Positions 14,084 through 62,521 of a stretch of 64,000 nt of DNA are shown piece after piece. The stretch is from an uncultured Actinomycetes bacterium. Lineage in GTDB: Bacteria > Actinomycetota > UBA4738 > HRBIN12. Position numbers and translations under genes: made by a program. The stretch spans positions 221,702 through 285,701 of the forward strand of contig CAVSFP010000009.1 in assembly GCA_963727185.1 (NCBI GenBank), in the 5' to 3' direction. Each line of letters opens with the position of its first letter. Position 1 is the first letter of the stretch. Below the pieces are notes generated by a model. It ran no database searches, had not been told where the DNA came from, and worked only from the letters and a program-made list of their open reading frames with translations.

Positions 14084-14362
14084 CTAGATGCGATCCTCGC
14101 GGCCCTCGTCCAGGGCCCGGCTCACGTCGCGTGTGGACGTTCCCTTCGGTGGGAGCAGCGTGAGGAGGTCGCCGCGCGGCGCCATCACCCGACCGGATGC
14201 GACCAGCCGATCGAGCGCGTTCAGCGGGACAGGGAGCGGAGCCAGCACCGCGACCGGCCGCCCATGCTCGGTGACCTCGAGCCGCTCACCCCGCTTGATC
14301 CGGTCGAGGTACTTGCTGAGGTTCTGCCTCAACTCCCGAACACCCACCTGTCGGTCATCCAT
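14084..14362 (-). CDS. type II antitoxin (Phd/YefM-like)
   Basis: Internal ATG of ORF 14084..14407 gives MDDRQVGVRELRQNLSKYLDRIKRGERLEVTEHGRPVAVLAP, a typical Phd/YefM N-terminal fold signature. Confidence 0.75.
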   Translation of the reverse strand: MDDRQVGVRELRQNLSKYLDRIKRGERLEVTEHGRPVAVLAPLPVPLNALDRLVASGRVMAPRGDLLTLLPPKGTSTRDVSRALDEGREDRI

Positions 14363-14396
14363 GTAGCACACGGTAGCACAAGTGGCTCGAACATCT

Positions 14397-14864
14397 CTAG
14401 GGTCCACCGGATGAGCCGACGACGCGGGTCCGCAGCCCGGGAAGACCCTCGAAGCCTCGTTCGTCCGCGGTCACGAGGACGCGCGCAGAGCTCACCGCCG
14501 TCGCAGCGATGATCAGATCATGGGCGCCTCGAGGTCGCCCCCCTCGCCGGGTCGCAGCGAGCAGTGCAGCGTGGGCGCGTGCGGTGTCCGCGGTGTAGTC
14601 CTCGACGGTGAGCACCTCAAGCGCTCCGTCGACGAACGCGGCCCGACGCGACCGGTGGCGGGCGGTCGCGAGCTCCACCCCCACCAGGAGCTCCGCGATC
14701 GTGATCGCCGCGACCGCCACGTCGTCCTCGTCGCCGATCACCGCGTCGAGCCGGGCGCGGCTGCGCTCCGCCGCGATCAGGACCGTGGTGTCCAGGATCA
14801 GTCGGTCCAGGTGCGCTCCTCGGCGACCGACGCGGCTCGCAGCGCGGTCAGCTCGCCGCTCCAC
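14397..14864 (-). CDS. vapC: PIN-domain toxin (VapC-like); start uncertain
   Basis: LILDTTVLIAAERS...AITIAELLVG...AHDLIIAATAVSSARVLVTADERGF matches the PIN pattern. The true start is probably near 14,800, overlapping the upstream antitoxin stop at 14798. No ATG or GTG lies there, so the ORF-track maximum is given. Confidence 0.7.
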   Translation of the reverse strand: MERRADRAASRVGRRGAHLDRLILDTTVLIAAERSRARLDAVIGDEDDVAVAAITIAELLVGVELATARHRSRRAAFVDGALEVLTVEDYTADTARAHAALLAATRRGGRPRGAHDLIIAATAVSSARVLVTADERGFEGLPGLRTRVVGSSGGP

Positions 14865-15176: not shown

Positions 15177-15935
15177 TCAGACGTCTCGGTGACGCTCGAA
15201 CCAGACGGCGGCCGCCCAGCCCAGCACGACGTAGGCGACCATCAGCAACCCGGCCTCGGGACGAGCGAACAGACGATCGCTCGCCTGCGACGAGAACGCG
15301 CCCGCCGCGCCGCCGAACGGGAGCCATTTCGCGGTCACCGGGATCAGGCTGCTCACGATGGACTCCACCACGAGCACCCACACGAGCAACCCGACGATCG
15401 CGGCCACCTGGTTGCGGAGCACCGCGCCGACCGCGACCCCCATCACGGCGCCGAACAGGGACTGCAGCCCGATCTGGAGGATCTCGAGGGGGATCGTGCC
15501 GTCGAGCGGCACGCTGTGGCCCTTCGCCGCGAACCAGACGAGGGCGACCAGGATCGGCACTGACCCGCCGACCAACCCGAACAGCGCGCCGATCGGGACG
15601 GCCGCGAGCATCTTGGCGGTGACGACCCGCGCTCGTCGCGGCGTCGCCAGGTACGTGATGCCCGCGGTGCCGTAGCGGTACTCAGACGTGGTCATCGTCA
15701 CGCCGAGGACGAGCGCCAGCGTCGCGGCGATCCCGCCGATGTCGAGCAACGTCCGAACGTCGGCGACCGTCTTCAGGTCGTGCAGGGCCCGAGCATCAGG
15801 GGAATCGGGACCCGGGGTGGAGGCCAGGACCGCGACGATGATCAACGCCACCACCGCGACGGCCACGCCGAGCAGCACCATCCACAGGCGCGTCGTTCGG
15901 AGCTTCAGCAGCTCCACGCGGACGAGACGGATCAC
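15177..15935 (-). CDS. ABC-2 type exporter permease
   Basis: GTG at 15935 (aa 147 of ORF 15177..16373) overlaps the ATPase stop (GTGA). The product reads VIRLVRVELLKLRTTRLWMVLLGVAVAVVALIIV... and has six TM segments. Confidence 0.8.
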   Translation of the reverse strand: MIRLVRVELLKLRTTRLWMVLLGVAVAVVALIIVAVLASTPGPDSPDARALHDLKTVADVRTLLDIGGIAATLALVLGVTMTTSEYRYGTAGITYLATPRRARVVTAKMLAAVPIGALFGLVGGSVPILVALVWFAAKGHSVPLDGTIPLEILQIGLQSLFGAVMGVAVGAVLRNQVAAIVGLLVWVLVVESIVSSLIPVTAKWLPFGGAAGAFSSQASDRLFARPEAGLLMVAYVVLGWAAAVWFERHRDV

Positions 15936-19732: not shown

Positions 19733-19842
19733 GGCGTGAGTGTACGTTCAGGTTTCACGGGGCTTCAGACGGTGCAAGCTGGAGGCCGCCGGGCCACCGG
19801 AGAGACCGCCCTCTCTACGCCCTTCGGCAGCCTCTGCGCGCC

Positions 19843-20232
19843 CTAAGCGCTCCAGAAGGCGTCGGCGGCAGCCTGGTCGAACGGTGTGATCCAGACTTCT
19901 TTCGCCTTGCCGTCTTCGATGTGGAACACCAATACCTGCGCCAAGGTGACCGTGTTCCCACGGCGCGTCGCCGTCGCGCTCACGAGCGCGATGGTGTGTT
20001 CGTCGTCAGCGACGATCGCGTGGATCTCCTGGCTGAAGGAGTCGGTCTCTTGAGGGATCAGTGCGAAGCTCCCGAAGACCGCCTGCTTGCCCACGAAGTC
20101 CCCCGCGATGACGCCAGTGCCCGAGGCATGCCAGACGACGTCGTCGCTCATGATCCCATCGAGCGTCGCCATGTCTCCCGCAGCGAACGCCTCGAAGCCT
20201 TTCCGAACCAGGTCCGCATTCGGATGTGCCAT
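19843..20232 (-). CDS. SnoaL-like / NTF2-fold protein
   Basis: ATG 20232 gives MAHPNADLVRKGFEAFAAGDMATLDGIMSDDVVWHASG..., a typical SnoaL_2 N-terminus. Its 3' ~185 bp recur at 62337..62521. Confidence 0.75.
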   Translation of the reverse strand: MAHPNADLVRKGFEAFAAGDMATLDGIMSDDVVWHASGTGVIAGDFVGKQAVFGSFALIPQETDSFSQEIHAIVADDEHTIALVSATATRRGNTVTLAQVLVFHIEDGKAKEVWITPFDQAAADAFWSA

Positions 20233-33711: not shown

Positions 33712-33986
33712 ACGAGCGCCAGGGTCGCGGCGATCCCGCCGATGTCGAGCAACGACCGAACGTCGGCGACCGTGTTCAGGTCGTGCAGAGCCCGGGTATG
33801 TCGGGGAACGCCTGCCACATGTAGCTGAACCACTCGATGCCCGCCTCCTTGGCCCCCATACTCCACAGGACCGCTGCGGTCGATGAAGTCATCCGCCAGA
33901 ATCTCCCGGGCAACTTCGGGCCGGTGGCCTGCTTGCCACTCCTCGACCAGACGGCGAACGAGGGCCTTGTTCTCCTCCTCGGACAC
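33712..33986 (-). pseudogene. chimeric remnant: frameshifted and truncated SnoaL/ester-cyclase-like gene joined to an 83-bp fragment of an ABC-2 permease gene
   Basis: From GTG 33986 the frame reads VSEEENKALVRRLVEEWQAGHRPEVAREILADDFIDRSGPVEYGGQ. After a frame change it reads GAKEAGIEWFSYMWQAFPDIPG. At about 33,797 it runs into ..LHDLNTVADVRSLLDIGGIAATLALV. That stretch (33712-33794) matches 15709-15791 inside the ABC-2 permease with 4 mismatches in 83 nt. Confidence 0.65.
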
Positions 33987-34136
33987 GCTACGCACCTCCC
34001 TCTCGGATGTGGATTCGGGGCCGCCCCGCCTCGAGTAACCCACGCTCGGATCCACTCTGGATGCTGGGCTCGCCGAACCTGAACCCGCCCGTCGGCACGA
34101 CCCCAGCAAAGCCCCTTCGGCCCATGCGAATGGGAA

Positions 34137-34400
34137 CTACGCCTCGACGAGGAACACGACAGTCTCGGGCAGCACGCCGTCGGACTCCATCTCTTCGCCG
34201 AACCCGGGGGTCTGCATCGCGGCCATGAGGGCATCCATGTCGGCAACGTCCATCAGCAGCCCCACGTGGGTCGGGTTCTGTGGGTTTACGAACGTCCGGA
34301 TGTTGGTGATGCCGATGGTGCCGAGGGCCTTGGCGCGATTCGGCGAGGCAAGCCAAAGGTCCTTGTCTTTAACCTCAAGGTGGCTAATCACGGTGGGCAT
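34137..34400 (-). CDS. hypothetical small protein (87 aa)
   Basis: Internal ATG (codon 12 of ORF 34137..34433) is preceded by AAGGAGG and gives MPTVISHLEVKDKDLWLASPNRAKALGTIGITNIRTFVNPQNPTHVGLLMDV... No family recognised. Confidence 0.5.
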   Translation of the reverse strand: MPTVISHLEVKDKDLWLASPNRAKALGTIGITNIRTFVNPQNPTHVGLLMDVADMDALMAAMQTPGFGEEMESDGVLPETVVFLVEA

Positions 34401-34519
34401 TGGTGCCTCCTTTGCTTGTGGGACGAGCCACAACGCCCGACCCGGTTGACAAACGTACGCTTATGAAGGCTTCACGAAGACGGGCCGGAGTGGAGGTCTC
34501 AAGGATCACCTTTGAGGAC

Positions 34520-34969
34520 CTAGGGAACGGCCGAACGAGCAGGGCGATCCCACTCCTTCAGGAGGCGCTCGCGCTGACGCAGGGCCCGGTCGTAGGCGAT
34601 GATGAGCGACCCCTTGAGCGGCGACAGCGCGACGACCGCCTCGTCGAGGAAGCCGGCGTGCACACCCGGGCGATCCCACCCCTTCAGGAGGCGATCGCGC
34701 TGACGCAGGGCCCGGCCGTACGCGATGACGAGCGACTCGCTGAGCGGCGACTGCGCGACGACCCCGTCGTCGAGGGATCCGTTGCTTTCCGCCACGCGGG
34801 TACCGCTGCCTTCCACGCTCGTCACGGATCGATCGCCTCGACCGGCCACGTTGAGTGCCACCGCGCTCAGGATCAGCGCCGCGGCCGCAAGAACGGACAC
34901 GGTTACGGTCCAGAACGTGAACAGCGCCGGTCGGCCGGAGAACCCCATGGTTCCCGCTTTCGTGCTCAT
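34520..34969 (-). CDS. membrane-anchored protein with 2 x 42-aa tandem repeat (copy 1 of a paralogous pair)
   Basis: MSTKAGTMGFSGRPALFTFWTVTVSVLAAAALILSAVAL forms an N-in signal anchor. It is followed by two 126-bp repeats encoding ..SPL(S/K)(E/G)SL(V/I)IAY(G/D)RALRQR(D/E)RLLK(G/E)WDRP.. GC3 is high, and GGGGAGGGA lies upstream of the ATG. Confidence 0.55.
   Translation of the reverse strand: MSTKAGTMGFSGRPALFTFWTVTVSVLAAAALILSAVALNVAGRGDRSVTSVEGSGTRVAESNGSLDDGVVAQSPLSESLVIAYGRALRQRDRLLKGWDRPGVHAGFLDEAVVALSPLKGSLIIAYDRALRQRERLLKEWDRPARSAVP
34542..34793. repeat. 126-bp tandem repeat x2 (in-frame, 42 codons) inside 34520..34969
   Basis: The units start at about 34,542 and 34,668 (GGGCGATCCCAC(T/C)CCTTCAGGAGGCG...). 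Similarity fades in the last ~15 nt. Confidence 0.85.
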
Positions 34970-34984
34970 GATCCCTCCCCTTCC

Positions 34985-35010
34985 CTCGGGTACCGATCTC
35001 TGATCCCGAG
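34985..35010. promoter_or_regulatory. conserved dyad CTCGGG-N14-CCCGAG directly upstream of the small-gene RBS (also at 42765-42790)
   Basis: It is identical in both module copies. Copy 2 additionally carries a ~12-bp near-tandem duplication of one arm (CTCGGGTACCtc/CTCGGGTACCga). It could be an operator or an RNA hairpin. Confidence 0.35.
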
Positions 35011-35082
35011 GCTAGAGAGAGCACCGACCCGAGGAATCCCCGAAACCCGTACCGATCGAGACGGTGACCGGTAGGTCTTGGC

Positions 35083-37882
35083 TCACGATCCCGGATGGCC
35101 GGATGGGAACGTCGAGGCCAGCTCCGTGCGGGAGCGGATGCCCAGCTTGCGGTAGATCCGCTTGAGATTGGCTTCCACGGTATGGACGCTGACGAACAGG
35201 GCGTCGGCCACCTCTCGGTTGGTGCTCCCGGCGGCGACCAGCTCCGCCACCCTGGCCTCGGTCGGGGTCAGGTCCACCGAGGAGGCGGCCCGTCCGCCGA
35301 TCCGGGCAAGCTCGGCACGCGTCCGTTCCGCCCACTCCGCGGCGCCGAGCCGCTCGAAGATCTCCAGAGCCTGCGTGAGCGTGTCCCGAGCCTCACGCTT
35401 CCTCTTGGCCCGGCGCTGCACCGCTCCCCTCACCAACAGCGTCCGACCCAGCTCGAACGGAAGGGGCAGGCGATCGTGTTGACGGACGGCCTCATCGGCT
35501 GCATCAGATGCACCTTGGAGGTCACCCCGGGCCGCGAACACGAGCGCCCGGCATCTGGCTCCCGTCGCCATCGCCCATGCCCGATCGAGGCTTCGGCCGG
35601 CCTCCTCGAAGGGGGCGAGGAGCGCCTCAGCCTCGTCGAGCCGCCCGAGGGCGACGAGCGCCTCGACCTCGTCCGGGACGACCCGGAAGTAGGCGGGCTC
35701 CCGAACGCCCATCGCTTGCTCGAGCTCGACGGCCCTGGACAGGAACGCATCGGCCTCGGCGGGTCGGCCCAGGGAAAGCTCGAGGAACCCCAGGACCGAC
35801 AGGTTCGGGATCAGGAGGAGGATCTCGCCGGCCGCCTCGGCGACCCGCAGCCCCTCGAGGGCTTCCAGCCTCGCCGGGTCGGCCCGCCCCAGATGGGCTT
35901 CCACCAGGCCCACCGCGAAGTGGCCCTCCGACCGACATGGGCCCCATGTGGTTCCGCTGGGCGGTCGCCCTGCTCTCCCGGGCGTGCTCGATGGCTGCAT
36001 CCCAGTTGCCCGCCCGACACTCCAGCTCGGCGAGGTGGTATCGGATCTGCGCTTGCGGGGTCTCAACGCCGTGCGCCGCGGCATCACCCAGGAGCTCGGT
36101 GAACGTCCGGCGGGCCTCGTCCAGGCGATCGGTGAACTTGAGGAGCTGCGCTACGACGAAGCTTGCACGCAGGACGTGGGATTTGAATTCGCCCTCCATG
36201 TGCCCTTCCAGGGCGATCCCGCGATCGAGCATCTCCTGATCGACCCCGCGTCCGAGGAGGAACTCGACGAATGGATACGCCTGGAACGCTTCGGCCATCA
36301 CCCGTGGTTCCTGCAGCTCCTCGGCCAGCTGCAGCGCGGCGCGAGCGTGCCGTTCCGATGCCGCGAGGTCGCCCCTGAACAGCCAGGCGTACCCGAGGTT
36401 CTGCTCGATCAGTGCCCGCAGCGCGAGATCGTCCCCCGCCTCGCCCCGAGCAGCCTCGAACACGGCCCAGGCCCCCCGCCACCCTTCGGTCTCGGCGAGG
36501 CCCATCCCCAGGTCCAGTAGCAGTCGGGCCCGAGCCGGCCCGGCCATCGAGAGGTCCACCGCTTGCTCCAGGACGCTCCGCGCCAGCGAGGGGTCCCCGC
36601 TCTCGAAGTGAGCCACGCCCGCCTGGTGGGTCCGACGCACCAGGTCCTCGCCTCGATCCCGCGGCGTGGCGCGGCGGGCCATCTCCCAGAGCTCGGCCGC
36701 GGATTGCGGCGCTCCCCGGGAGGAGGCCAGCAGGGCGGCCTCCTCGAGGGCGGCGGCGACGGCGACGTCCGGGCCCTCGACGGACAGAGCCAGGTGGCGG
36801 GCTCGTTCCTCCGGATCGAGGACGATCGTCGCGAGCCGCGCGTGCAGCTCGCGACGCCGGGCAGGCGGGATCTTCTGATAGACGGCGGAAGCAAGGAGAG
36901 GGTGCGTGAACCGGAGCCCGTCGCCGACGACCTCCACGACGTCGTTGTCGATGGCAGGACCCAGACGATCGTCAACCCCGCGCGAAGGAGCGATCGCCGC
37001 AGCGATCACATCGAACGTCGGAGCCGACAGGGCCGAGACGATCTCCAGGGCTTCGACGGTCCGCGCAGGGAGCCCCCCGAGGCGATCCTCGATGAGCTCT
37101 TGAAGGCGGTCAGGGATCGGGAGCCCTTCGCCGGCCGTCACGTCACCTCCGCGGCGAAGGAGCGCCAATCCGATCTCCCGTGCGAAGAAGGGATTGCCTC
37201 CCGACATCTGGTGGAGGCTGAGGAGCGTGGTTCGGGAGAACCCTTCCCCCACCTTGGCCCGAAGCACCCGTTCGAGGGCGTCCTGCGACAGCGGTCCGAC
37301 GTGGACGGCGTGCACGCGATCCTCGGCGAAGGCCGACACGACGCCCAGGGGGTCGTCATCGGCACGGGCGCCTCGAGCGGCCGTCATCAAACCGACCTGC
37401 TCGTCCTTCAGGCGCCGCACGACGAACTGGAGCACCCGGACCGAAGGGATGTCCATCCATTGGACGTCATCGACGGCCACCACCACGGGAGAGGTGGAGG
37501 CCACCGATCGGAGGCATCCAAGCACGGCCAGGGAAACGGCCCGCTGGTCGGCTCGGGCGCCCGATCTCGGGGAGCGCAAGAGGGCCACCTCGAGGGCCTG
37601 ACGCTGTGGCTCCGGCACGGTGGGAAGTGCCTCCTCGAGGATGGGCTCGAGGAGGTCACCGAGGGCAGCGTAGGACAGGCGTGTCTCGGCCTCGACCGGA
37701 CCGCATGAGAGCGTGCGGTAGCGCCGCAGCTGAGCACCCGCCAGCCCCTCCTTCCACACGGTGGTCTTGCCGATGCCGGGATCACCCGACAGGACCAAGG
37801 CGCTCGGCCCGGTCGGGATCGAGTCCAGGAACCGATGGAGGATCGCGAGCTCGGACTCGCGCCCGATGACGTCACCGGCCAA
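35083..37882 (-). pseudogene. LAL-type regulator (P-loop NTPase + TPR + C-terminal LuxR HTH), copy 1, split by a 1-nt insertion
   Basis: The N-terminal 751-aa ORF (35627..37882) has Walker A GDPGIGKTT and Walker B VVVAVDDVQWMD. The C-terminal 334-aa ORF (35083..36087) ends in the GerE HTH LTPTEARVAELVAAGSTNREVADALFVSVHTVEANLKRIYRKLG. The two frames join at about 35,921-35,940, where copy 1 has one nucleotide more than the intact paralogue. Confidence 0.8.
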
Positions 37883-37935
37883 GACGCTCTCCCCGCGCTC
37901 GGTGGATGCCAGGATTCTAAGGATGGCGGGTCCGA
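37883..37935 (-). promoter_or_regulatory. conserved upstream region of the LAL gene with -10-like TAGAAT (copy 2: TACAAT at about 45,691-45,696)
   Basis: The homologous segments are ..CCGCCATCCTTAGAATCCTGGCATCCACCG.. and ..CCGCCATCCTTACAATCCTGGCGTCCACCG.. Each lies about 31 nt upstream of a TTG start at the equivalent position, with GGGAGAG-type SD boxes between. Confidence 0.4.
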
Positions 37936-38061
37936 ACCTGCGCCTCGATCACTCCGAGCTCCCGTGCCGTCTGTCGCGGGTCCACCTCGAGGTCGCCGGT
38001 CGTGAGCGTCCCTGAGTTTCCCCAAGTTGCGTCCGGGGAGCGTTGATTGCACCATGCGCGC

Positions 38062-39408
38062 ATGGAGCGCCCCGGTGTCGCCTTCGCCCGCGCTCAGGAT
38101 GGGGCATACCTCGCGTACCAAGCCTTCGGCGATGGACCGATCGACCTCCTGTGGCAGGACGACTTCTTCGCGATCGTCGACGAGTGGTGGGACTCGCCGG
38201 TTGACCGCGCCATCTACGAGAACCTCGCTGGATCCGCGCGGGTGATACTGCACGACCGGCGCGGCACCGGTTGTTCGAGCCGTGACGGCGGGCCGGCGAA
38301 CCTCGAGACCCGGGTTTCGGACACGCTCGCCGTGATGGACGCCGCTGGCGTGCAGCAAGCGGTCGTCGGCGGTCTCTTGGAAGGGGGAGCGAGCATGGCA
38401 CTGTTGGCCGCCATGTACCCCGAACGGGTCCGAGCGTTGGTGTGGTCGCGGCCGGTACCGTGCGCCGCGGCGAGGCCTGATTTCCCATGGGGCGTCGACG
38501 CCTCGTATATCGAGCGTGAGGAGGAGATCACGAGCGACTGGGGCACGGAGGCATTCGCACGCGGCTTCATGGAGCTGAACGCAGAGGCCATGGAAGGCCC
38601 GTGGTCGGCAGAGAGCTATGTCGCCACCCTCGCTCGGATCACACGCCGGACGTGTACCCCCGACGTGGCGAAGCAGCTCAACACGATGTGGTACGAGACC
38701 GACGTCCGCGGGGTGTTGTCGTCCATCCAAGTGCCGACGCTCCTGCTCGTCGACCGGGAGGACTCCGACCACGACCTCCGCACGATCGGCGAGCACGTCG
38801 CTTCGTTGATCCCCGACGCCGTTATCGAGCCCTACATCCTTGTGGACGACACCGGCGCCGGCGTCCGCGCGATGGGGGAATCGATCCGCCGGTTCATCGG
38901 TGCCGAGCGACGGCCCGAAGCGCTGGACTCCGTCCTGGCGACCGTGCTGTTCACCGATATCGTCGACTCGACCAAGCGCAGCGCGGAGTTGGGCGACCGG
39001 GAGTGGGGCGCCGTGCGACGGCGGCACGATGACATCGTCCGCGCCGAGCTGGCGCGCTACCGTGGCCGCGAGGTGAAGACGATGGGCGACGGGTTCCTCG
39101 CAACCTTCGAGGGTCCCGCACGCGGTGTGCATTGCGCCCGAGCGATCGCGGAAGGCGTCAGAGCGTTAGGGATCGAGATCCGCGCCGGCCTCCACACCGG
39201 CGAGATCGAACTGGAGGGCGACGACATCGCGGGGATCGCGATCGCGATCGGCGCCCGCATCGGCGCCATGGCAGGTGCATCCGAAGTGCTCGTGTCTCGC
39301 ACCGTGAAAGACCTCACGGCCGGAAGTGGACTCACCTTCGAAGACGTCGGAGAACACGACTTGAAGGGCGTCCCCGACCGCTGGCAGCTCTATCGGGTTG
39401 CGGGCTAG
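38062..39408 (+). CDS. alpha/beta-hydrolase domain fused to class III adenylate/guanylate cyclase domain
   Basis: The N-terminal ~270 aa are alpha/beta-hydrolase-like (VILHDRRGTGCS; GGLLEGGASMALLAAMYPERV). The C-terminal cyclase homology domain reads LATVLFTDIVDSTKRSAELGD...KTMGDGFLATFEGP...RAGLHTGEIE. The start is taken at ATG 38062 (ORF-track TTG 38047). Confidence 0.85.
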   Translation: MERPGVAFARAQDGAYLAYQAFGDGPIDLLWQDDFFAIVDEWWDSPVDRAIYENLAGSARVILHDRRGTGCSSRDGGPANLETRVSDTLAVMDAAGVQQAVVGGLLEGGASMALLAAMYPERVRALVWSRPVPCAAARPDFPWGVDASYIEREEEITSDWGTEAFARGFMELNAEAMEGPWSAESYVATLARITRRTCTPDVAKQLNTMWYETDVRGVLSSIQVPTLLLVDREDSDHDLRTIGEHVASLIPDAVIEPYILVDDTGAGVRAMGESIRRFIGAERRPEALDSVLATVLFTDIVDSTKRSAELGDREWGAVRRRHDDIVRAELARYRGREVKTMGDGFLATFEGPARGVHCARAIAEGVRALGIEIRAGLHTGEIELEGDDIAGIAIAIGARIGAMAGASEVLVSRTVKDLTAGSGLTFEDVGEHDLKGVPDRWQLYRVAG

Positions 39409-39879
39409 CCCGATCCCGAATCAACGGAGGCCCTTGAACTGGGAATCCGGACCATCTGTCACGGATCGCCGCGTTCTCGCCCGCGGTCTGTTCTTCAGAC
39501 GGTGGCAATCGGTGGTGTCCGGGTTCGCGTCCGGAGAGCAGCCGAAGCTATAACCCCTTAGTGCTTGACGGCAGAGTTGCGGCTCGTCAGTTGGCGTTCC
39601 TTGAGTCCCCCTTGGCCGCGGTGAGTCAAGCGGGGGAAGCAGCGAAAGCACTGGGCCCCAGCGCATCGGATGAAGGCGCTTCCGACCGACTCGAACCCGC
39701 CAGCAATAGTGCTTCGAAGCACGGTCGGCGGTAACCGCGTGTCCACCCGCATATGGAGAAAGGGTTGCTTCAGTAACAAGACAAAGGTAGCGAGGCCGGT
39801 CACGGCTACGCCCGCGTGGTGTCCGTCTCCTCCCTCGGCTTGGATCCCCGGATCGGGCAGTGTTGCGGGTGCAAGGGCT

Positions 39880-40022
39880 TCAGGGCGATGATCGAGGCGG
39901 GGGAGTTCAAGCCGATCGTCGATCGGCGATATCGTCTGGAACGAGATCATCGAGGCCTACCGCTACGTCGAGACGGGGCGGAAGATCGGCAACGTGGTGA
40001 TCACGGTCGATCCGGCGAGCTA
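39880..40022 (+). pseudogene. C-terminal fragment of a medium-chain (zinc-type) quinone oxidoreductase/alcohol dehydrogenase, frameshifted
   Basis: ..MIEAGEFKPIVDRRYRLE, then after a frame change ..IIEAYRYVETGRKIGNVVITVDPAS-stop. This is the typical C-terminus of the MDR family. The upstream ~450 bp have no intact frame, though a faint AIVLRSTVGG resembles the D-V-V-L-D-T-V-G-G region. Confidence 0.5.
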
Positions 40023-40038
40023 GTCGAAGGAGGGACAC

Positions 40039-40425
40039 ATGGGCGAGGCAGACGCAGTCGTTGGCATCTCGCGTGACGAACTGCGCGCGGGGCTCCCGAC
40101 ACCGGGCATGCGGCGCGAAGAAGCGATCGCCACCGAGACGACCTGGGCGGGGCTCGCTCATACCGAGGCCGGCATGGTGTCGGGCTGGCATCACCACGGC
40201 GACTACGAGTCTGTCATCTACGTCCTCACGGGAGGGTTCCGGATGGAGTCCGGTCCGGCCGGAACCATCGTCTTCGACGCAGCGCCCGGCGACTTCCTGT
40301 TCGTCCCGCGTGGTGCGATCCATCGAGAGGGCAACCCGTCAGACGACGAAGGAACCGCGGTCGTCGTGCGCACGGGACGGGGTGATCCCGTCGTGAACGT
40401 GGACGGCCCGGCGCCGAGCGTCTAA
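40039..40425 (+). CDS. cupin_2 domain protein (128 aa)
   Basis: GAAGGAGGG lies upstream of the ATG. The cupin motifs are GWHHHGDYESVIYVLTGGFRME and GDFLFVPRGAIHREGN. Confidence 0.7.
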   Translation: MGEADAVVGISRDELRAGLPTPGMRREEAIATETTWAGLAHTEAGMVSGWHHHGDYESVIYVLTGGFRMESGPAGTIVFDAAPGDFLFVPRGAIHREGNPSDDEGTAVVVRTGRGDPVVNVDGPAPSV

Positions 40426-40813
40426 CGAAGCAGGGCGCGATCGAGCTCGCTCGCCATCACGGGTCGAGGGCGATGATCCAGCGCTTCGAGTTGCAGACAT
40501 CGACGTCGGCCTGGCCCCGACGCCCCTTGAACGTCCGGTCCCGCCTCCGAGAGCGAGCCGCCCCTTGAACGACGAAGTGAAGGCCGCAGCAAGGAGTCGC
40601 CTTGGGATGGGTCGCATCCCAGTGAGGCTCCGTAGTTGCCGGCCGTATGGAAGTCGCCGAGATGCAGGACTGGGCAAGACTCGCAGTTTCGTGAACCAAC
40701 GAGTCACAGGCGAGTCGACCGTGCATCGACAGGAGCGCCGGCCATGGGGGAGCGGATAGCGGAACCCGCGACGCCTGCGGCCTGGCGCTCTGGCACGTCT
40801 ACGTGGTGCGTTG

Positions 40814-40835
40814 TCGGCGGATCGAGAGGGCGCCG
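40814..40835 (+). repeat. 22-bp exact direct repeat, left copy (TCGGCGGATCGAGAGGGCGCCG)
   Basis: It is identical to 41977-41998. GGTGC is also shared a few nt upstream of both copies. Confidence 0.9.
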
Positions 40836-41076
40836 AGATTCGTGACTGGAGACGAGCGCATACGAGGTCAGGATCGCCCTCCGAGCTGGGCGGTTATGCG
40901 TCGAACGAACGCCACACGACGATCGCGATTGCATCCGCGACCCGAAGCGATCCGCCCACATGCTCATGCGTCGGGGGTAGAGGGGTTGGTAGGTGACAAA
41001 CGGGTTTGGACTGCACTCAAGGTTGACGAGAGTGAACTGCTACCCCAAAGACGGCTCGGGTGAAGCTTGAGGACGG

Positions 41077-41766
41077 TTAGCTCTTGGCCTCAAGCGCGGC
41101 AACAGCCTCCGTGTCGAAGCCTTTGACGATCAACCAGATGCCGAGGCCGAACTCGAAGACCGCGACCGGGAGCGCAGAGAGCCCCGCGAACCCGCCGGTT
41201 CGGTCGATCGTTCCGGAGAGCACAAGCAGGTAGCCAACGACGAGCAGGGGTGCTCCGATGATGCCGATCACCGATAGCCCTCGCGGCACCAGGCGCGACT
41301 TGTACAGCATGTAGCCGAGCAATAGGTCGCAGACGGCGGGCATGAAGCTTTGCCCTAGCAGGAAGATGCGGTTGTAGAGGGCAACGAGCGCGTGGCTCAC
41401 CGCGAGGCCTCCTGTTCCAGCGCCGTCCAGCCGCAGGGTCACGATCGACAGGATGAACGCTACCCCGACGAAGATCGTGGCGGACTCCAGGATGCGGGCC
41501 GCGACAAGACCGAGTGCGAACGTCTCGTTCTGCTTCTTGAGTATCGGGAACAGGATGACGGCGGTGGCGATGCCGGCGAGAGCCACGATGATCTCCAGGA
41601 TGCCGCCGACGATGGCAGCCGTATTCGAACCCGAGCCAAGGAGGTAGTTCGCGCCCTTAACTGAGCTGTACAGAGCGATCGAAGGTATCGAAACGAAGGT
41701 GAGCACATACGCGATGCCTGCGGCGAGGGAGATCCTTCTCTGTGAAGACGCTGCGGTGGTATTCAT
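41077..41766 (-). CDS. DUF4386-like membrane protein (paralogue of 17028..17810)
   Basis: ATG 41766 gives MNTTAASSQRRISLAAGIAYVLTFVSIPSIALYSSV.... It has the same TM pattern as the other DUF4386-like gene. Confidence 0.7.
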   Translation of the reverse strand: MNTTAASSQRRISLAAGIAYVLTFVSIPSIALYSSVKGANYLLGSGSNTAAIVGGILEIIVALAGIATAVILFPILKKQNETFALGLVAARILESATIFVGVAFILSIVTLRLDGAGTGGLAVSHALVALYNRIFLLGQSFMPAVCDLLLGYMLYKSRLVPRGLSVIGIIGAPLLVVGYLLVLSGTIDRTGGFAGLSALPVAVFEFGLGIWLIVKGFDTEAVAALEAKS

Positions 41767-41976
41767 ACGTCTACTGTCCCCCCTTGATCGTTGACTACTG
41801 CGCCCGCGCCGCCTACTTGGCGCCGTGTGTCTCATCCTGCCAGATGCTCTCCCACCAGTGGTGCCACTGCCATCTTCGCAAGCCGACTGGCCAGATATCG
41901 CCTTGTCGGCAGTCCCCAGCTGGCTTGAGTCCCATTCCCCGGTCTGGGAGGCAGAGTGTACGCATTAGGTGCTATC

Positions 41977-41998
41977 TCGGCGGATCGAGAGGGCGCCG
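41977..41998 (+). repeat. 22-bp exact direct repeat, right copy
   Basis: It is identical to 40814-40835. The two copies bracket 1.14 kb containing only the DUF4386-like gene. Confidence 0.9.
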
Positions 41999-42314
41999 GA
42001 CGGCTTATTCGAGGGGGAGGAAGCCGTCTTGCACCTGATGTGTTAGGAGATAGAACGCCCCGGGACGCCCCCCATCGAATCGCGATCTCGGAGAGGGCCT
42101 ATCCGAGGGAGAACCCGTCCTCCAACGCTTGATGAGAAGAGAGATAGAGAGCTAAGGATGCCCCAGCCCCTAACGCACATCGTGTGAGGATCTATTCGAG
42201 CCGCGCCCTCCTTACCTCCCCGAGCTATCACCGAGTCGGGTGCTCGCTCGCCGACTCGCCGAGCTCGCCCCCCTAAGCGTGGTCGGGCGGCGATCGTTGC
42301 GCTGGCTGCGGGTC

Positions 42315-42737
42315 CTATCGTCCAGCCGAGGACCGCGGGAAGATGATTCCTTGGTCGCACCCGACACAGGAGGGCAGGGAACGTGACCGAGCAAGCGCCC
42401 CAGCAAACCTCGGGAAGATGGTTCCTTGGTCGCACCCGACACAGGAGGGCAGGGAACGTGACCGAAGAAGCGCCCTAGGAACACCCGAGAAGATGGTTCC
42501 TTGATCGCATCCGACACAGGAGGGCAGGGCGCCCGCGTTCGCCGAAGCGCCGACCCGCTCGGCCCGCTCACCATCCCTTGCCACACTCGTAACGGAGCGA
42601 TCGCCGCGTACCGCCACGGTGAGCGCCAGGGCGCTCATGATCAGCGCCGCGGCCGCAAGAACGGACACCGTTACGGTCCAGAACGTGAACAGCGCCGGTC
42701 GGCCGGAGAACCTCATGGTTCCCGCTTTCGTGCTCAT
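42315..42737 (-). CDS. membrane-anchored protein with 3 x 25-aa CxxC-containing tandem repeat (copy 2 of the paralogous pair); coding status of the repeat part uncertain
   Basis: The N-terminal ~50 aa are almost identical to 34520..34969 (MSTKAGTMRFSGRPALFTFWTVTVSVLAAAALIMSALAL). The C-terminus is three repeats of SLPSCVGCDQGTIFP(R/S).....(S)R. The repeat part uses many low-GC3 codons (tgt, caa, gga, ctt, tca), unlike neighbouring genes. Confidence 0.45.
   Translation of the reverse strand: MSTKAGTMRFSGRPALFTFWTVTVSVLAAAALIMSALALTVAVRGDRSVTSVARDGERAERVGASANAGALPSCVGCDQGTIFSGVPRALLRSRSLPSCVGCDQGTIFPRFAGALARSRSLPSCVGCDQGIIFPRSSAGR
42337..42530. repeat. 75-bp tandem repeat x about 2.6
   Basis: The units start at about 42,337, 42,412 and 42,487. 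The first ~52 nt of each unit are nearly identical (GGGAAGATG(A/G)TTCCTTGGTCGCACCCGACACAGGAGGGCAGGGAACGTGACCGA). The last ~23 nt are more diverged. Confidence 0.85.
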
Positions 42738-42861
42738 GAATCCCTCCCTTCCCTCGGGTACCTCCTCGGGTACCGATCTCTGATCCCGAGGCTAGAGGGA
42801 GCATCGTTCCGGGGAATCCCCGAAACCCGTACCGATCGAGACGGAGACCGGTACGTCTTGC

Positions 42862-45765
42862 TCAGGATCCCGGGTGGCCGGATGGGAACTTCGAGGCCAG
42901 CTCCGTGCGGGAGCGGATGCCCAGCTTGCGGTAGATCCGCTTGAGATTGGCTTCCACGGTATGGACGCTGACGAACAGGGCGTCGGCCACCTCTCGGTTG
43001 GTGCTCCCGGCGGCGACCAGCTCCGCGACCCTGGCCTCGGTCGGGGTCAGGTCCACCGAGGAGGCGGCCCGTCCGCCGATCCGGGCAAGCTCGGCACGCG
43101 TCCGTTCCGCCCACTCCGCGGCGCCGAGCCGCTCGAAGATCTCCAGAGCCTGCGTGAGCGTGTCCCGAGCCTCACGCTTCCTCTTGGCCCGGCGCTGCAC
43201 CGCTCCCCTCACCAACAGCGTCCGACCCAGCTCGAACGGAAGGGGCAGGCGATCGTGTTGACGGACGGCATCATCGGCTGCATCAGATGCACCTTGGAGG
43301 TCACCCCGGGCCGCCAACACGAGCGCCCGGCATCTGGCTCCCGTCGCCATAGCCCATGCCCGATCGAGGCTTCGGCCGGCCTCCTCGAAGGGGGCGAGGA
43401 GCGACTCGGCCTCGTCGAGCCGCCCGAGGGCGACGAGCGCCTCGACCTCGTCCGGGACGACCCGGAAGTAGGCGGGCTCCCGAACGCCCATCGCTTGCTC
43501 GAGCTCGACGGCCCTGGACAGATACGCATCGGCCTCGGCGGGTCGACCCAGGGAAAGCTCGAGGAACCCCAGGACCGCCAGGTTCGGGATCAAGGGGAGC
43601 ATCTCGTCGGCCGCTTCGGCGAGGCGCAGCCCTTCAAGGGCTTCCAGCCTCGCCGGGTCGGCCCGCCCCAGATGGGCTTCCACCAGGCCCACCGCGAAGT
43701 GAGCCATCGACGAGAAGGACCCCATGGCTTGCCGCTGGGCGGCCGCCTTGCTTTCGCGGGCGTGTTCCATGGCTGCATCCCAATTCCCCGCCCGGCATTC
43801 CAGCTCCGCGAGGTGATACAGGATCTGAGGGACCGGGCTCTCGACACCATGCGCCGAGGCACCAGCCAGGAGCTCGTTGAACGTCCGGCGGGCCTCGTCC
43901 AGGCGGTCGGTGAACTTGAGGAGTTGAGCGAGGACGAAGCTCGCGCGCAGGACGTATGAGATTAACTCCCCCGACATATGCCCCTCCAGGGCTATGCCAC
44001 GATCCAGCAGCTCGTGATCGACTCCCCGCCCCAGGAGGAACTCGACGAATGGATACGCCTGGCAGGCTTCGGCCATCACCCGTGGGTCCTGCAGCTCCTC
44101 GGCCAGCTCCAGCGCCGCGCGAGCGTGCCGTTCCGATGCCGCGAGGTCTCCTATGAACAACCGGGCGTACCCGAGATTTTGCTCGACACGTGCTTTCAAA
44201 GCGAGATCGTCTCCCACCTCGTTCGAGGCAGCCGAGAAGATGTCCACGGCCCGCCGCCAGCCTTCCTCCGCCGCAACGACCTGGCCCAGATCGAGTAGCA
44301 CCCTTGCCCGAGGCGGCCCGTGGGTCGAAAGGTTCACCGCTTGCTCGAGGACGCTCCGCGCCAGCGAGGTGTCTCCGCACTCGTAGTGAGCCACGCCCGC
44401 CTGGTGGGTCCGACGCACCAGGTCCTCGCCTCGATCCCGCGGCGTAGCGCGGCGGGCCATCTCCCAGAGCTCGGCCGCGGATTGCGGCGCTCCCCGGGAG
44501 GAGGCCAGCAGGGCGGCCTCCTCGAGGGCGGCGGCGACGGCGACGTCCGGGCCCTCGACGGACAGAGCCAGGTGGCGGGCTCGTTCCTCCGGATCGAGGA
44601 CGATCGTCGCGAGCCGCGCGTGCAGCTCGCGACGCCGGGCAGGCGGGATCTTCTGATAGACGGCTGAAGCAAGGAGAGGGTGCGTGAACCGGAGCCCGTC
44701 GCCGACGACCTCCACGACGTCGTTGTCGATGGCAGGACCCAGACGATCGTCAACCCCGCGCGAAGGAGCGATCGCCGCAGCGATCGCATCGAACGTCGGA
44801 GCCGACAGGGCCGAGACGATCTCCAGGGCTTCGATGGTCCGCGCAGGGAGCCCCCCGAGGCGATCCTCGATGAGCTCTTGGAGGCGGTCAGGGATCGGGA
44901 GCTCTTCGCCGGCCGTCACGTCACCTCCGCGGCGAAGGAGCGCCAATCCGATCTCTCGTGCGAAGAAGGGATTGCCTCCCGACATCTGGTGGAGGCTGAG
45001 GAGCGTGGTTCGGGAGAACCCTTCCCCCACCTTGGCCCGAAGCACCCGTTCGAGGGCGTCCTGCGACAGCGGTCCGACGTGGACGGCGTGCACTCGATCC
45101 TCGGCGAACGCCGACACGACGCCCAGGGGGTCGTCATCGGCACTGGCGCCTCGAGCGGCCGTCATCAAACCGACCTGCTCGTCCTTCAGGCGCCGCACGA
45201 CGAACTGGAGCACCCGGACCGAAGGGATGTCCATCCATTGGACGTCATCGACGGCCACCACCACGGGAGAGGTGGAGGCCACCGATCGGAGGCATCCGAG
45301 CACGGCCAGGGAAACGGCCCGCTGGTCGGCTCGGGCGCCCGATCTCGGGGAGCGCAAGAGGGCCACCTCGAGGGCCTGACGCTGTGGCTCGGGCACGGCG
45401 GGAAGTGCCTCCTCGAGGACGGGCTCGAGGAGGTCACCGAGGGCAGCGTAGGACAGGCGTGTCTCGGCCTCGACCGGGCGGCATGAGAGCGTGCGGTAGC
45501 GCTGTTGCAGGGCACCCGCCAGCCCCTCCTGCCATACGGTCGTCTTCCCGATGCCGGGATCACCGGATAGGAGCAGGGCGCTCGGGCCGGTCGGGATCGA
45601 GTCCAGGAAGCGATCGAGGATCGCGAGCTCGGACTCGCGCCCGATGACGTTATCTGCCAAAGGCGCTCTCCCGCGTCGGTGGACGCCAGGATTGTAAGGA
45701 TGGCGGGGCCAACCTTGCAGACCCGTCGAGGCTCGCACGGTCGGCGGTACCCGCCATCGCGCCAA
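42862..45765 (-). CDS. LAL-type regulator (P-loop NTPase + TPR + LuxR HTH), copy 2, intact
   Basis: 967-aa ORF with the same Walker A/B motifs and C-terminal GerE HTH as copy 1. The likely true start is TTG 45660 (..LADNVIGRESELAIL), homologous to the copy-1 start and downstream of the conserved TACAAT box. Confidence 0.85.
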   Translation of the reverse strand: MARWRVPPTVRASTGLQGWPRHPYNPGVHRRGRAPLADNVIGRESELAILDRFLDSIPTGPSALLLSGDPGIGKTTVWQEGLAGALQQRYRTLSCRPVEAETRLSYAALGDLLEPVLEEALPAVPEPQRQALEVALLRSPRSGARADQRAVSLAVLGCLRSVASTSPVVVAVDDVQWMDIPSVRVLQFVVRRLKDEQVGLMTAARGASADDDPLGVVSAFAEDRVHAVHVGPLSQDALERVLRAKVGEGFSRTTLLSLHQMSGGNPFFAREIGLALLRRGGDVTAGEELPIPDRLQELIEDRLGGLPARTIEALEIVSALSAPTFDAIAAAIAPSRGVDDRLGPAIDNDVVEVVGDGLRFTHPLLASAVYQKIPPARRRELHARLATIVLDPEERARHLALSVEGPDVAVAAALEEAALLASSRGAPQSAAELWEMARRATPRDRGEDLVRRTHQAGVAHYECGDTSLARSVLEQAVNLSTHGPPRARVLLDLGQVVAAEEGWRRAVDIFSAASNEVGDDLALKARVEQNLGYARLFIGDLAASERHARAALELAEELQDPRVMAEACQAYPFVEFLLGRGVDHELLDRGIALEGHMSGELISYVLRASFVLAQLLKFTDRLDEARRTFNELLAGASAHGVESPVPQILYHLAELECRAGNWDAAMEHARESKAAAQRQAMGSFSSMAHFAVGLVEAHLGRADPARLEALEGLRLAEAADEMLPLIPNLAVLGFLELSLGRPAEADAYLSRAVELEQAMGVREPAYFRVVPDEVEALVALGRLDEAESLLAPFEEAGRSLDRAWAMATGARCRALVLAARGDLQGASDAADDAVRQHDRLPLPFELGRTLLVRGAVQRRAKRKREARDTLTQALEIFERLGAAEWAERTRAELARIGGRAASSVDLTPTEARVAELVAAGSTNREVADALFVSVHTVEANLKRIYRKLGIRSRTELASKFPSGHPGS

Positions 45766-45837
45766 GCCTCGAAGTCACCTTCGGAGATCGTGCGGCGAGT
45801 TGAGGGAGTCCTCTCGAAAGGATCGTCGAACCCCATT

Positions 45838-45892
45838 GGACACGGACTCCGATTCCTGAACCACATGGGACACGGACTCCGATTCCTGAACC
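45838..45892. repeat. 25-nt motif GGACACGGACTCCGATTCCTGAACC repeated twice with 30-bp period in the divergent LAL/cyclase intergenic region
   Basis: Read directly from the sequence, with copies at about 45,838-45,862 and 45,868-45,892. It is absent from the equivalent copy-1 intergenic region. Confidence 0.85.
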
Positions 45893-61578: not shown

Positions 61579-62340
61579 ATGGGCGATATCGACCGCTTCT
61601 TCGCGTTCGAAGCCCATCGTCACTCGCTGCTCAGCACCCGTACGGAGCCGTTCGAGGGCGGCGTCGCGTACTTCGACGACGGGTATCCGGAGAGGTACGT
61701 GTCCAACTTCCTCCTCGTCGACCGCGACGAGGTAACGCTCACCGGCGATCGACTCGCGTCGTTGGCGGACGACATCATGGGTGGCGAAGGGCTCTCGCAC
61801 CGCCACGTGACGGTCCTGGGCGAGCGCGGCGGGCGACTGGCGCCGTCGTTCCGCGACCGCGGGTATGAGGTCGGGAGGATCGTCGCGATGGCGCTTCGCA
61901 GGCCTCCCGATCGTCCCGCCGCCCTGTCGACGGAGGAGCGTTCGTTCGATGAGGTCCGCCCGCTCATGGAGGAGATCTACTGCAGGGAGCTGCCGCGGGC
62001 GCCGGAGACCGCGGATCGTTTCGTCGAGCAGCACGCGGGGTGGGACCGCATCCTCGGCACACGGCGGTTCGCCGCGCGGATCGACGGCACGCTCGCCGGG
62101 CAATGTGAGCTGTACGTGAACGGCGCCGACGCGCAGATCGAGTACGTCGACACGCTCGAGGAGTACCGCGGGCGCGGGGTCGCGCGCGCCGTCGTGCTCG
62201 CGGCCGCCGAGGCGGCGCGCCGCGCCGGGGCCGATCGGGTATTCATCGCCACCGACGAGGACGACGGGCCGAAGCTCCTCTACGAACGCTTCGGGTTCGA
62301 CCCGATCGGCCACGAGTGGGAGTTCACGCGTTACCCCTAG
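61579..62340 (+). CDS. GNAT-family N-acetyltransferase
   Basis: The C-terminal acetyl-CoA motif is IEYVDTLEEYRGRGVARAVVLAAAEAARRAGADRVFI...LYERFGF. Confidence 0.8.
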   Translation: MGDIDRFFAFEAHRHSLLSTRTEPFEGGVAYFDDGYPERYVSNFLLVDRDEVTLTGDRLASLADDIMGGEGLSHRHVTVLGERGGRLAPSFRDRGYEVGRIVAMALRRPPDRPAALSTEERSFDEVRPLMEEIYCRELPRAPETADRFVEQHAGWDRILGTRRFAARIDGTLAGQCELYVNGADAQIEYVDTLEEYRGRGVARAVVLAAAEAARRAGADRVFIATDEDDGPKLLYERFGFDPIGHEWEFTRYP

Positions 62341-62521
62341 GCGCTCCAGAAGGCGTCGGCGGCAGCCTGGTCGAACGGTGTGATCCAGACTTCTTTCGCC
62401 TTGCCATCTTCGACGTGGAACACGAACACCTGCGCCAACGTGGCCGTCTTCCCACGGCGCGTCGCCGTCGCGCTCACGAGCGCGATGGTGTGGTCGTCGT
62501 CGGCGACGATCGCGTGGATCA
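62337..62521 (-). pseudogene. 3'-terminal remnant (about 60 codons) of a SnoaL-like gene, duplicate of 19843..20027
   Basis: It reads ..IHAIVADDDHTIALVSATATRRGKTATLAQVFVFHVEDGKAKEVWITPFDQAAADAFWSA-stop. About 185 bp align with the intact gene at 19.8 kb with about 10 mismatches. There is no N-terminal half and no plausible start. Confidence 0.7.

Follow-up and report, generated by a model that had tools for sequence, protein, structure and literature searches.

Comparison with described systems

Among the described arrangements closest to the one considered here is the RRNPP cassette, compared across Rap-Phr, NprR-NprX, PlcR-PapR, PrgX-PrgQ and AimR-AimP, for which five features are diagnostic: a propeptide of 10-100 amino acids (aa), export by Sec/PptAB, a receptor of 250-500 aa, tetratricopeptide repeats (TPRs) and direct adjacency of the two genes (PMC10075063). 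The present analysis concerns a 64-kb stretch of a contig from an uncultured soil member of the Actinomycetota (hereafter the window; G+C about 67%), in which two small open reading frames (ORFs), at 34520..34969 (copy 1) and 42315..42737 (copy 2) on the minus strand, each follow a gene for a STAND regulator. It is proposed, as the likely interpretation, that these are two paralogous copies of a lineage-specific module, in which a gene for an LAL/MalT-like STAND regulator would be followed by a conserved leader of 113 nucleotides (nt) and then by a gene for a small protein with either a membrane anchor or a long signal peptide, ending in a tail of tandem repeats. Such a module resembles an RRNPP cassette in that a cytoplasmic TPR transcription factor is encoded beside a small gene of the export type, and both the TPRs and the direct adjacency are found here. 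It differs in its receptor, which is a STAND NTPase of 930-970 aa (931-967 aa for the proteins assessed against the cassette features) with a C-terminal LuxR-type helix-turn-helix (HTH), in its small protein, which is built of tandem units and measures 140-149 aa in the window and 109-161 aa in canonical members, and in its host, which belongs to the Actinomycetota and not to the Firmicutes; processing, re-import and binding of a peptide are putative here.

The regulators of LAL/MalT type, including MalT, PikD, AveR and the mycobacterial AAA-TPR-LuxR proteins such as IniR, have the same order of AAA_16, TPR and GerE domains as the window gene. No small anchored repeat protein is known to us as the partner of any regulator of this type, and searches of the literature turned up no account of such a pairing. 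For most LAL regulators the signal that is sensed is not known, and an exported peptide array that is genetically linked to the regulator would be a concrete candidate for such a signal.

Multi-copy peptide precursors are exemplified by the yeast alpha-factor precursor MFalpha1 and by the multi-core precursors of ribosomally synthesized and post-translationally modified peptides (RiPPs) such as cyanobactin PatE and thiovarsolin VarA. The window family is similar to these in its N-terminal export or leader part followed by tandem short conserved cores with variable linkers and copy number. Unlike them, it has no conserved modifying enzyme or dedicated protease nearby; the context past the regulator varies, and the downstream genes, which differ between loci, include no RiPP enzyme families. 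In-frame minisatellites, or variable-number tandem repeats, are also known in bacterial genes, for example those of the mycobacterial MIRU type, where long units, divisible by three in length, change in copy number and leave the frame intact. The units of the window family differ from them in that each encodes a peptide core under strong conservation, and one array originates from a housekeeping gene. That gene is recF: the copy 1 unit is homologous, at both DNA and protein level, to residues ~125-172 of RecF (TIGR00611; structures 5zwu and 8a8j), from which it is distinguished by its length of only 42 aa, by the lack of ATPase motifs, by its fusion to a membrane anchor and by its position outside a dnaA-dnaN-recF-gyrB region.

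Two copies of the module in the window

Self-comparison of the window reveals a 3.15-kb repeat (34809-37939 against 42576-45715, 92.8% identity) that spans the regulator gene, the intergenic leader and, in each small ORF, the first ~53 codons. Its 3' edge falls inside the small ORFs, at 34809/42576, after about codon 53, which agrees with the initial annotation that the DNA homology stops within the gene. The first ~50 residues of the two proteins, described there as almost identical, show six mismatches over 53 residues (89% identity), only one of which lies within the first 33. Past this region the proteins part: copy 1 (149 aa) continues into a tandem tail derived from recF, and copy 2 (140 aa) into three units with the core LPSCVGCDQ.

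The two in-frame 126-bp repeats reported for copy 1 and the unrelated 75-bp repeat reported for copy 2 were recovered by Tandem Repeats Finder and by a repeat search. In the former the copy 1 array occupies 34542-34775 with a period of 126 bp (1.9 copies, 89% match, score 391) and the copy 2 array 42336-42529 with a period of 75 bp (2.6 copies, 91% match, score 316), both scores far exceeding the background rows (30-50) of the same table; the latter delimits three 75-bp units at 42332-42556. Each small ORF does lie downstream of a STAND regulator as first stated, with the correction that all of these genes are read on the minus strand.

A family of small proteins with modular tails

A protein search with copy 1 returned 284 matches, most of them confined to the first ~65 residues at 85-95% identity, the range in which the N-termini of both window ORFs agree with those of the family. 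Canonical members end in RVLAG and are 109, 135 or 161 aa long, depending on whether they contain two, three or four copies of the 26-aa unit PLWDAGKLEAMQGRVLAETVRAEGSA; the core of this unit, WDxxKLxAMxGRxLA, forms the usual tail of the family. When one genome was scanned for each GTDB species, the small ORF was detected in metagenome-assembled genomes (MAGs) of 17 uncultured Actinomycetota species, in addition to many metagenome contigs. In all loci save L013, an LAL regulator 84-87% identical to that of the window ends ~113 nt upstream, the gap being 113-124 nt in the window and in at least 17 species. The position directly after a STAND regulator, initially regarded as unusual, is instead a synteny kept in at least 17 species, and within this clade of uncultured Actinomycetota from soil it links the family with STAND regulators of the LAL type.

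The ratio of nonsynonymous to synonymous differences (pN/pS, Nei-Gojobori method) is 0.34 for the N-terminal 53 codons of the family and 0.29-0.33 for the 17-aa core of the canonical repeat, in which third codon positions vary most, indicating that the canonical small ORF is a real coding gene. An exhaustive HMMER search yielded 86 clusters, among which relatives of 40-60% identity keep WDxxKLxAMxGRxLA and have different anchors; the three distant relatives that could be placed lie in unrelated contexts without an LAL regulator. Profile searches gave no Pfam, NCBIfam or PDB match for the family, the PDB search having covered both tail classes. The canonical unit W-D-x-x-K-L-x-A-M-x-G-R-x-L-A was not found anywhere in the window by tblastn, and neither window copy has it. 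Three tail classes can be listed, namely WDxxKLxAMxGRxLA (2-4 units), LPSCVGCDQ (1-3 units) and recF-derived (1-2 units). A shared anchor with swapped, unrelated repetitive tails, as initially described for the two window proteins, is therefore a property of the whole family, and the repeat copy number, whose comparison had been suggested, varies within each class. The proteins constitute an undescribed family of small anchored tandem-peptide proteins with modular repeat tails; it is a family that is marked here, and not a proven new mechanism.

The downstream context of the module varies, often consisting of a tRNA-Ala or tRNA-Ser gene on the opposite strand or of a second LAL regulator. Many canonical loci have a gene for tRNA-Ser(gct) or tRNA-Ala(tgc) on the opposite strand, 100-230 nt past the small ORF (6524-6613 in L002/L005, 6632-6705 in L007, 6511-6585 in L011 and 6551-6624 in L017), an arrangement seen at neither window copy. 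The canonical arrays of L015, L017, L020 and L021 are frameshifted and read as Cys/Arg-rich sequence, which could reflect long-read assembly errors or real decay. The distant proteins P0145, P0150, P0170, P0186, P0146 and P0153 often end in a further conserved motif, (V/T)(K/P)PH(L/V)PKR or HGGPLG, which the window clade lacks.

The copy 1 tail is a captured fragment of recF

By blastn, copy 1 matches the canonical loci up to 34774 (codon 65, the start of the repeats) and resumes matching them from 34542 to 34496. The latter flank (34496..34542, minus strand) is homologous to the sequence just past the canonical stop, at 83-98% over 38-48 nt in L006, L007, L008, L010, L015 and others, and forms the 3' edge of the replaced array. 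Since canonical homology flanks the array exactly on both sides, the array alone has been replaced in copy 1, whose stop codon sits in what is non-coding flank at canonical loci. The replacing sequence, the 2 x 126-bp array at 34542..34775 (minus strand), comes from recF (RecF residues ~125-172) and is read in recF's own frame. The tail matches NCBIfam TIGR00611 (recF) at model positions 131-172 with an E value of 2.5e-5, and longer variants match at E 1.3e-7 and are matched to the RecF structures 5zwu and 8a8j as well. The matches are limited to positions ~125-172 of the 339 in the RecF model, so that a full-length SMC-like ATPase of ~340-400 aa with Walker A, signature and Walker B motifs is not present, and none of the dnaA-dnaN-recF-gyrB genes lies near 34.5 kb in the window.

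With the tail fragment as query, P0121 and P0122 were found at 87-90% amino-acid identity. In a related MAG, P0121 is encoded within the dnaA-dnaN-recF-gyrB-gyrA region, with dnaN on one side and gyrB on the other, a position that identifies it as part of a genuine recF. At the DNA level (blastn) the window units match the genuine recF in L038 over 117 nt at 84.6% (E 1e-28) and over 124 nt at 77% (E 2e-16), and L035 matches genuine recF over 165 nt (E 3e-44). In copy 1, an in-frame piece of recF from the lineage itself occupies exactly the place of the former array.

An older state of the insertion is represented by L036, in which recF sequence is present as three collinear pieces (nt 385-508, 844-908 and 990-1036 of the L038 extract) bounded on both sides by canonical LWDAGKL units; short strings are shared at the junctions (microhomology), for example GTGGGACG. 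From these junctions we infer that a piece of recF measuring 650 nt or more would have been inserted by microhomology-mediated illegitimate recombination, and that internal deletions, loss of canonical units and tandem duplication would have followed. Captured in frame, trimmed and duplicated, with intermediates kept in related genomes, this recF piece provides a helpful illustration, from nature, of the origin of chimeric ORFs and of new repeats. A recF origin was also considered for the canonical repeat, prompted by a PDB alignment running over the LWDAGKL unit; it was rejected, the motif being old and widespread and the likeness sitting at recombination junctions, where we take it for microhomology and not for a sign of descent.

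The GC content of the copy 1 tail at the three codon positions (.76/.50/.86) appears coding-like because the fragment is read in recF's own frame. Eight recF-derived units from five loci have a pN/pS of 1.16, obtained free of the distortion by one indel-bearing locus that had skewed the initial value, and their 17 variable sites split 2/7/8 by codon position; no purifying selection was found in this small sample, whose units are not independent. The copy 1 tail is therefore most likely a non-functional passenger, and the helical-looking unit that had been taken for an ectodomain turns out to be a captured piece of recF without purifying selection.

The exact copy 1 protein is on record as P0249, and at least five other assemblies contain variants of it, 95% and 89% identical. 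One-unit (107 aa) and two-unit (149 aa) forms of the recF tail were each encountered in several samples, together with decayed forms. In every case the gene after the two-unit form is the same one, of 87 aa and not assigned to a family, which in the window lies directly downstream of copy 1 at 34137..34400 (minus strand), is found beside the recF-tail variant in other assemblies too, and has no Pfam match.

The LPSCVGCDQ tail of copy 2

The 3 x 75-bp array of copy 2 (42332..42556, minus strand) encodes (A/S)LPSCVGCDQGTIFP plus a linker, with a flat GC content across the codon positions (.64/.66/.66 for the tail) and rare codons. The exact copy 2 ORF was not called by the public gene caller; its homology to every fetched family locus stops at 42576, with no flank homology beyond that point, and a 19-mer from its unit is absent from the fetched loci and the JGI contigs. 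A truncated duplicate reading into junk had been suggested by the flat GC, the missing flank homology and the absent 19-mer; this interpretation was withdrawn after a tail-only protein search retrieved four homologues of the same architecture. These proteins, P0244-P0247, consist of the anchor, then VGAGANAGA, then one to three units with the core LPSCVGCDQ, which is invariant in 11 of 11 units of the five proteins and is lacking in copy 1.

The tail of this class is conserved as much as the anchor or more. Copy 2 and P0244 are 84% identical in the tail and ~72% identical in the first 53 residues, the corresponding values for P0245 being 72% and ~77% (tails by BLASTP, N-termini by eye on the alignment), and the anchors in the five LPSCVGCDQ contigs differ by 23-28%. 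Because core and tail are so conserved, neutral drift of the copy 2 tail is incompatible with the data, and the comparison, which demonstrates conservation at the protein level only, argues that this is a second conserved tail class. The proposed search for homologues of the C-terminal repeats yielded recF for copy 1 and four metagenomic proteins for copy 2, with none in the PDB for copy 2. The 75-bp array gives no signal of RNA structure (z = -0.2) and no Rfam match. The CxxC within the copy 2 core was examined as a haem site and rejected because the next residue is D, not H.

Origin of the homology edge

The related strains L030 and L031 carry the copy 1 module only, and in L031 this module adjoins DNA that in the window lies past copy 2. 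In the first 33 codons, copy 2 and P0246 resemble copy 1; the N-terminal region of P0244, P0245 and P0247 differs. The best explanation would be that two older paralogous modules, with their mosaic regulators, were partly homogenised by recombination or gene conversion, the homogenised tract comprising the 3' end of the regulator, the leader and the beginning of the small ORF. On the sequence comparison, the sharp end of the homology most probably marks where such a tract of recombination or gene conversion ends, a recent truncating duplication being less likely. The arrays themselves probably change in length by unequal recombination and always in frame, as the unit lengths and observed copy numbers indicate.

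Anchor, topology and predicted export

Both window ORFs display the features of the family anchor, a basic N-terminus followed by an uncharged hydrophobic stretch of 21-31 residues, here at residues 14-43 (34841..34930 on the minus strand in copy 1), which may act as a signal anchor or as a long signal peptide. The flank on the N-terminal side is more positive than that on the C-terminal side in 25 of the 26 family members (means +2.4 against -0.3); in copy 1 the charges are +2 (+1 for the N-terminus) and +1, respectively. Application of the positive-inside rule, which had been recommended as a check of topology, thus predicts an exported tail and favours an N-in/C-out orientation with the tails of the small proteins outside the cell. 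An A-V-A motif at residues 36-38 of the anchor region could be a putative signal-peptidase site, and both the charge bias and the motif are compatible with export. In the AlphaFold2 model of the canonical homologue P0102 (mean pLDDT 50) only the anchor helix (residues 13-46, pLDDT 68-86) is confident, the repeat units being low-confidence short helices.

The tail of the small protein would, according to this topology, be an exported array of short tandem peptide units, and we tentatively suggest that the protein may serve as an exported or surface-tethered peptide array under the adjacent regulator. Should the tails have no signalling role, the family would be an evolutionary curiosity of modest importance.

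The leader between regulator and small ORF

The leader of copy 1 (34970..35082, minus strand, 113 nt) contains a palindrome or hairpin, CCTCGGG-N14-CCCGAGG at 34984-35011 (minus strand), two GATCGGTAC motifs and a GGGAGG ribosome-binding site. That of copy 2 (42738..42861, minus strand) is alike, save for a 12-bp tandem duplication at 42752-42774 beside the hairpin. Among 20 aligned loci the mean p-distance of the leader is 0.09, lower than the pS at synonymous sites of the adjoining ORF (0.17); the ribosome-binding site and start codon of the small ORF are conserved among loci, and the leader stem of L014 carries a compensatory G-C to C-G change. The RNA fold of the leader is not significant (z = -1.1), Rfam gave no matches in 33900-43000, and promoter and terminator scans returned nothing useful. 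The conserved elements of the leader fit regulated expression, possibly by the LuxR-type neighbour, for which the palindrome together with the GATCGGTAC motifs is a candidate operator; the small gene would probably be transcribed under the adjacent regulator via the conserved leader. In copy 1 the palindrome and the two GATCGGTAC motifs are assigned to the intervals 34984-35011 and 35047-35073 of the leader.

The upstream LAL-type regulators

Pfam searches identified AAA_16, TPR (TPR_12, TPR_8 and TPR_2) and GerE/LuxR HTH domains in both regulators, giving the architecture of LAL/MalT-like proteins with an N-terminal STAND/AAA NTPase, a central TPR region and a C-terminal LuxR-type HTH. The copy 2 regulator (42862..45765, minus strand) is intact, with 967 aa, AAA_16 at 40-195, TPRs at ~600-880 and GerE at 906-958. 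The copy 1 regulator (35083..37882, minus strand) is split into two ORFs, 35083-36087 and 35627-37882, by one extra G at 35933 (+1 frameshift) that is absent from all 14 aligned homologues (copy 2 and 13 others); this indel is either a real frameshift, making the gene a pseudogene, or an assembly error. The two regulators are mosaic, two blocks being 98-100% identical and the central block, aa ~480-728 on the TPR side, 69-89%. The ratio of nonsynonymous to synonymous substitution rates (dN/dS) in the block aa 480-728 is 0.35, as elsewhere, with no sign of diversifying selection. A cognate specificity between receptor and tail was considered and found no support, in that the divergent block is shared by copy 2 and L009 and the tail of L009 is canonical.

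ARAGORN calls a 92-nt tRNA-Ser(cga) within the coding sequence of the copy 1 regulator (35802-35893, minus strand) and makes the same call at the same relative position in L002 (9077-9168), L005 (5077-5168) and L008 (37-128); Rfam detects no tRNA at 35802-35893 even at E <= 1, and the call is probably a recurrent false positive. A PADLOC search for defence systems produced an HTH-level match only.

Alternative interpretations

Several points weigh against two paralogous regulator and anchored repeat-protein modules as proposed here. All members of the family are predicted from sequence. Distant members are not found beside LAL regulators, so that the association with regulator control holds for the clade only. 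For the recF tail, the estimate of neutrality depends on eight non-independent units and 17 variable sites, and the recF-tail ORF is open in several assemblies in its 149-aa and 107-aa forms, which might have a new function. Conservation of the copy 2 tail could be at the DNA level, given its flat codon-position GC, its rare codons and an ORF left uncalled in the public collection. The frameshift at 35933, finally, could be an assembly error.

The alternative that survives best, though it is unlikely, is a receptor and propeptide pair of the RRNPP kind, in which the small protein would be secreted as a multi-copy pro-peptide whose units are cleaved, re-imported and bound by the TPRs of the regulator, with the tail classes acting as pherotypes. 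It would account for a TPR transcription factor directly beside a small gene whose product begins with a basic segment and has a long hydrophobic stretch, for the maintenance of this adjacency in at least 17 species, for repeat units that are peptide-like in being short helices of low pLDDT, for the existence of two alternative conserved unit types and for a constrained leader. The sizes of both partners nevertheless fall outside the defined ranges, with a receptor of 930-970 aa that includes a STAND NTPase in place of 250-500 aa and a small protein of 109-161 aa in place of 10-100 aa (PMC10075063). Moreover, the regulator block aa 480-728 does not track the tail class, L009 combining a copy-2-like block with a canonical tail at a dN/dS of 0.35; distant family members have no LAL neighbour; and no conserved peptidase or oligopeptide importer is found nearby. 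A more specific version, to which we assign a slightly smaller chance, is that the loci form a new actinobacterial peptide-signalling cassette in which released WDxxKLxAMxGRxLA or LPSCVGCDQ units are sensed by the regulator TPRs, the window modules being distinct signal types and the recF-tail module decayed.

A contingency locus or variable surface protein, with adaptive ectodomain switching by genes that share an anchor, was the interpretation of the initial annotation, and we consider it improbable. The tails do differ between paralogues, the unit number varies between genomes and an extracellular location is predicted for the tail. However, the units of 75, 78 and 126 bp are all multiples of three, so that slippage alters the length and not the frame, which precludes on/off switching; the repeat tracts lie inside the ORF, where gain or loss of a unit causes neither a frame shift nor a change in promoter spacing of the phase-variable type. 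The canonical core is conserved and not diversifying, the one clear tail swap involves a fragment of a housekeeping gene evolving without constraint, and neither silent cassette donors nor recombinases occur at the loci.

Least probable of all is that neither window ORF is real and both are fortuitous frames over non-coding minisatellites downstream of the regulator, for although the copy 2 tail has no codon-position GC signal and was left uncalled by the public pipeline, the copy 1 tail is not under purifying selection and high-GC genomes yield many long spurious ORFs, the N-terminal anchor and canonical repeats are under purifying selection across species, the ribosome-binding site and start codon are conserved, the LPSCVGCDQ core is invariant in five contigs whose anchors differ by 23-28%, and the GC at third positions of copy 1, inherited from recF as it is, goes with an anchor that belongs to a real gene family.

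Other features of the window

Divergent from the copy 1 regulator is a gene for a fusion of a LipJ-like alpha/beta-hydrolase with an adenylate cyclase (38047-39408, plus strand); cyclase genes are also present close to the L001 and L037 modules. A 30-bp tandem repeat (45828-45892, 2.2 copies, 94% match) precedes the copy 2 regulator, just ahead of its start and beyond the duplicated segment. Two dispersed direct repeats were also recorded, one of 83 bp (15709-15791 and 33712-33794, 95% identity) and the other of 186 bp (19841-20026 and 62335-62520, 94.6% identity), the latter being present in L030 as well, at 14276-14461.

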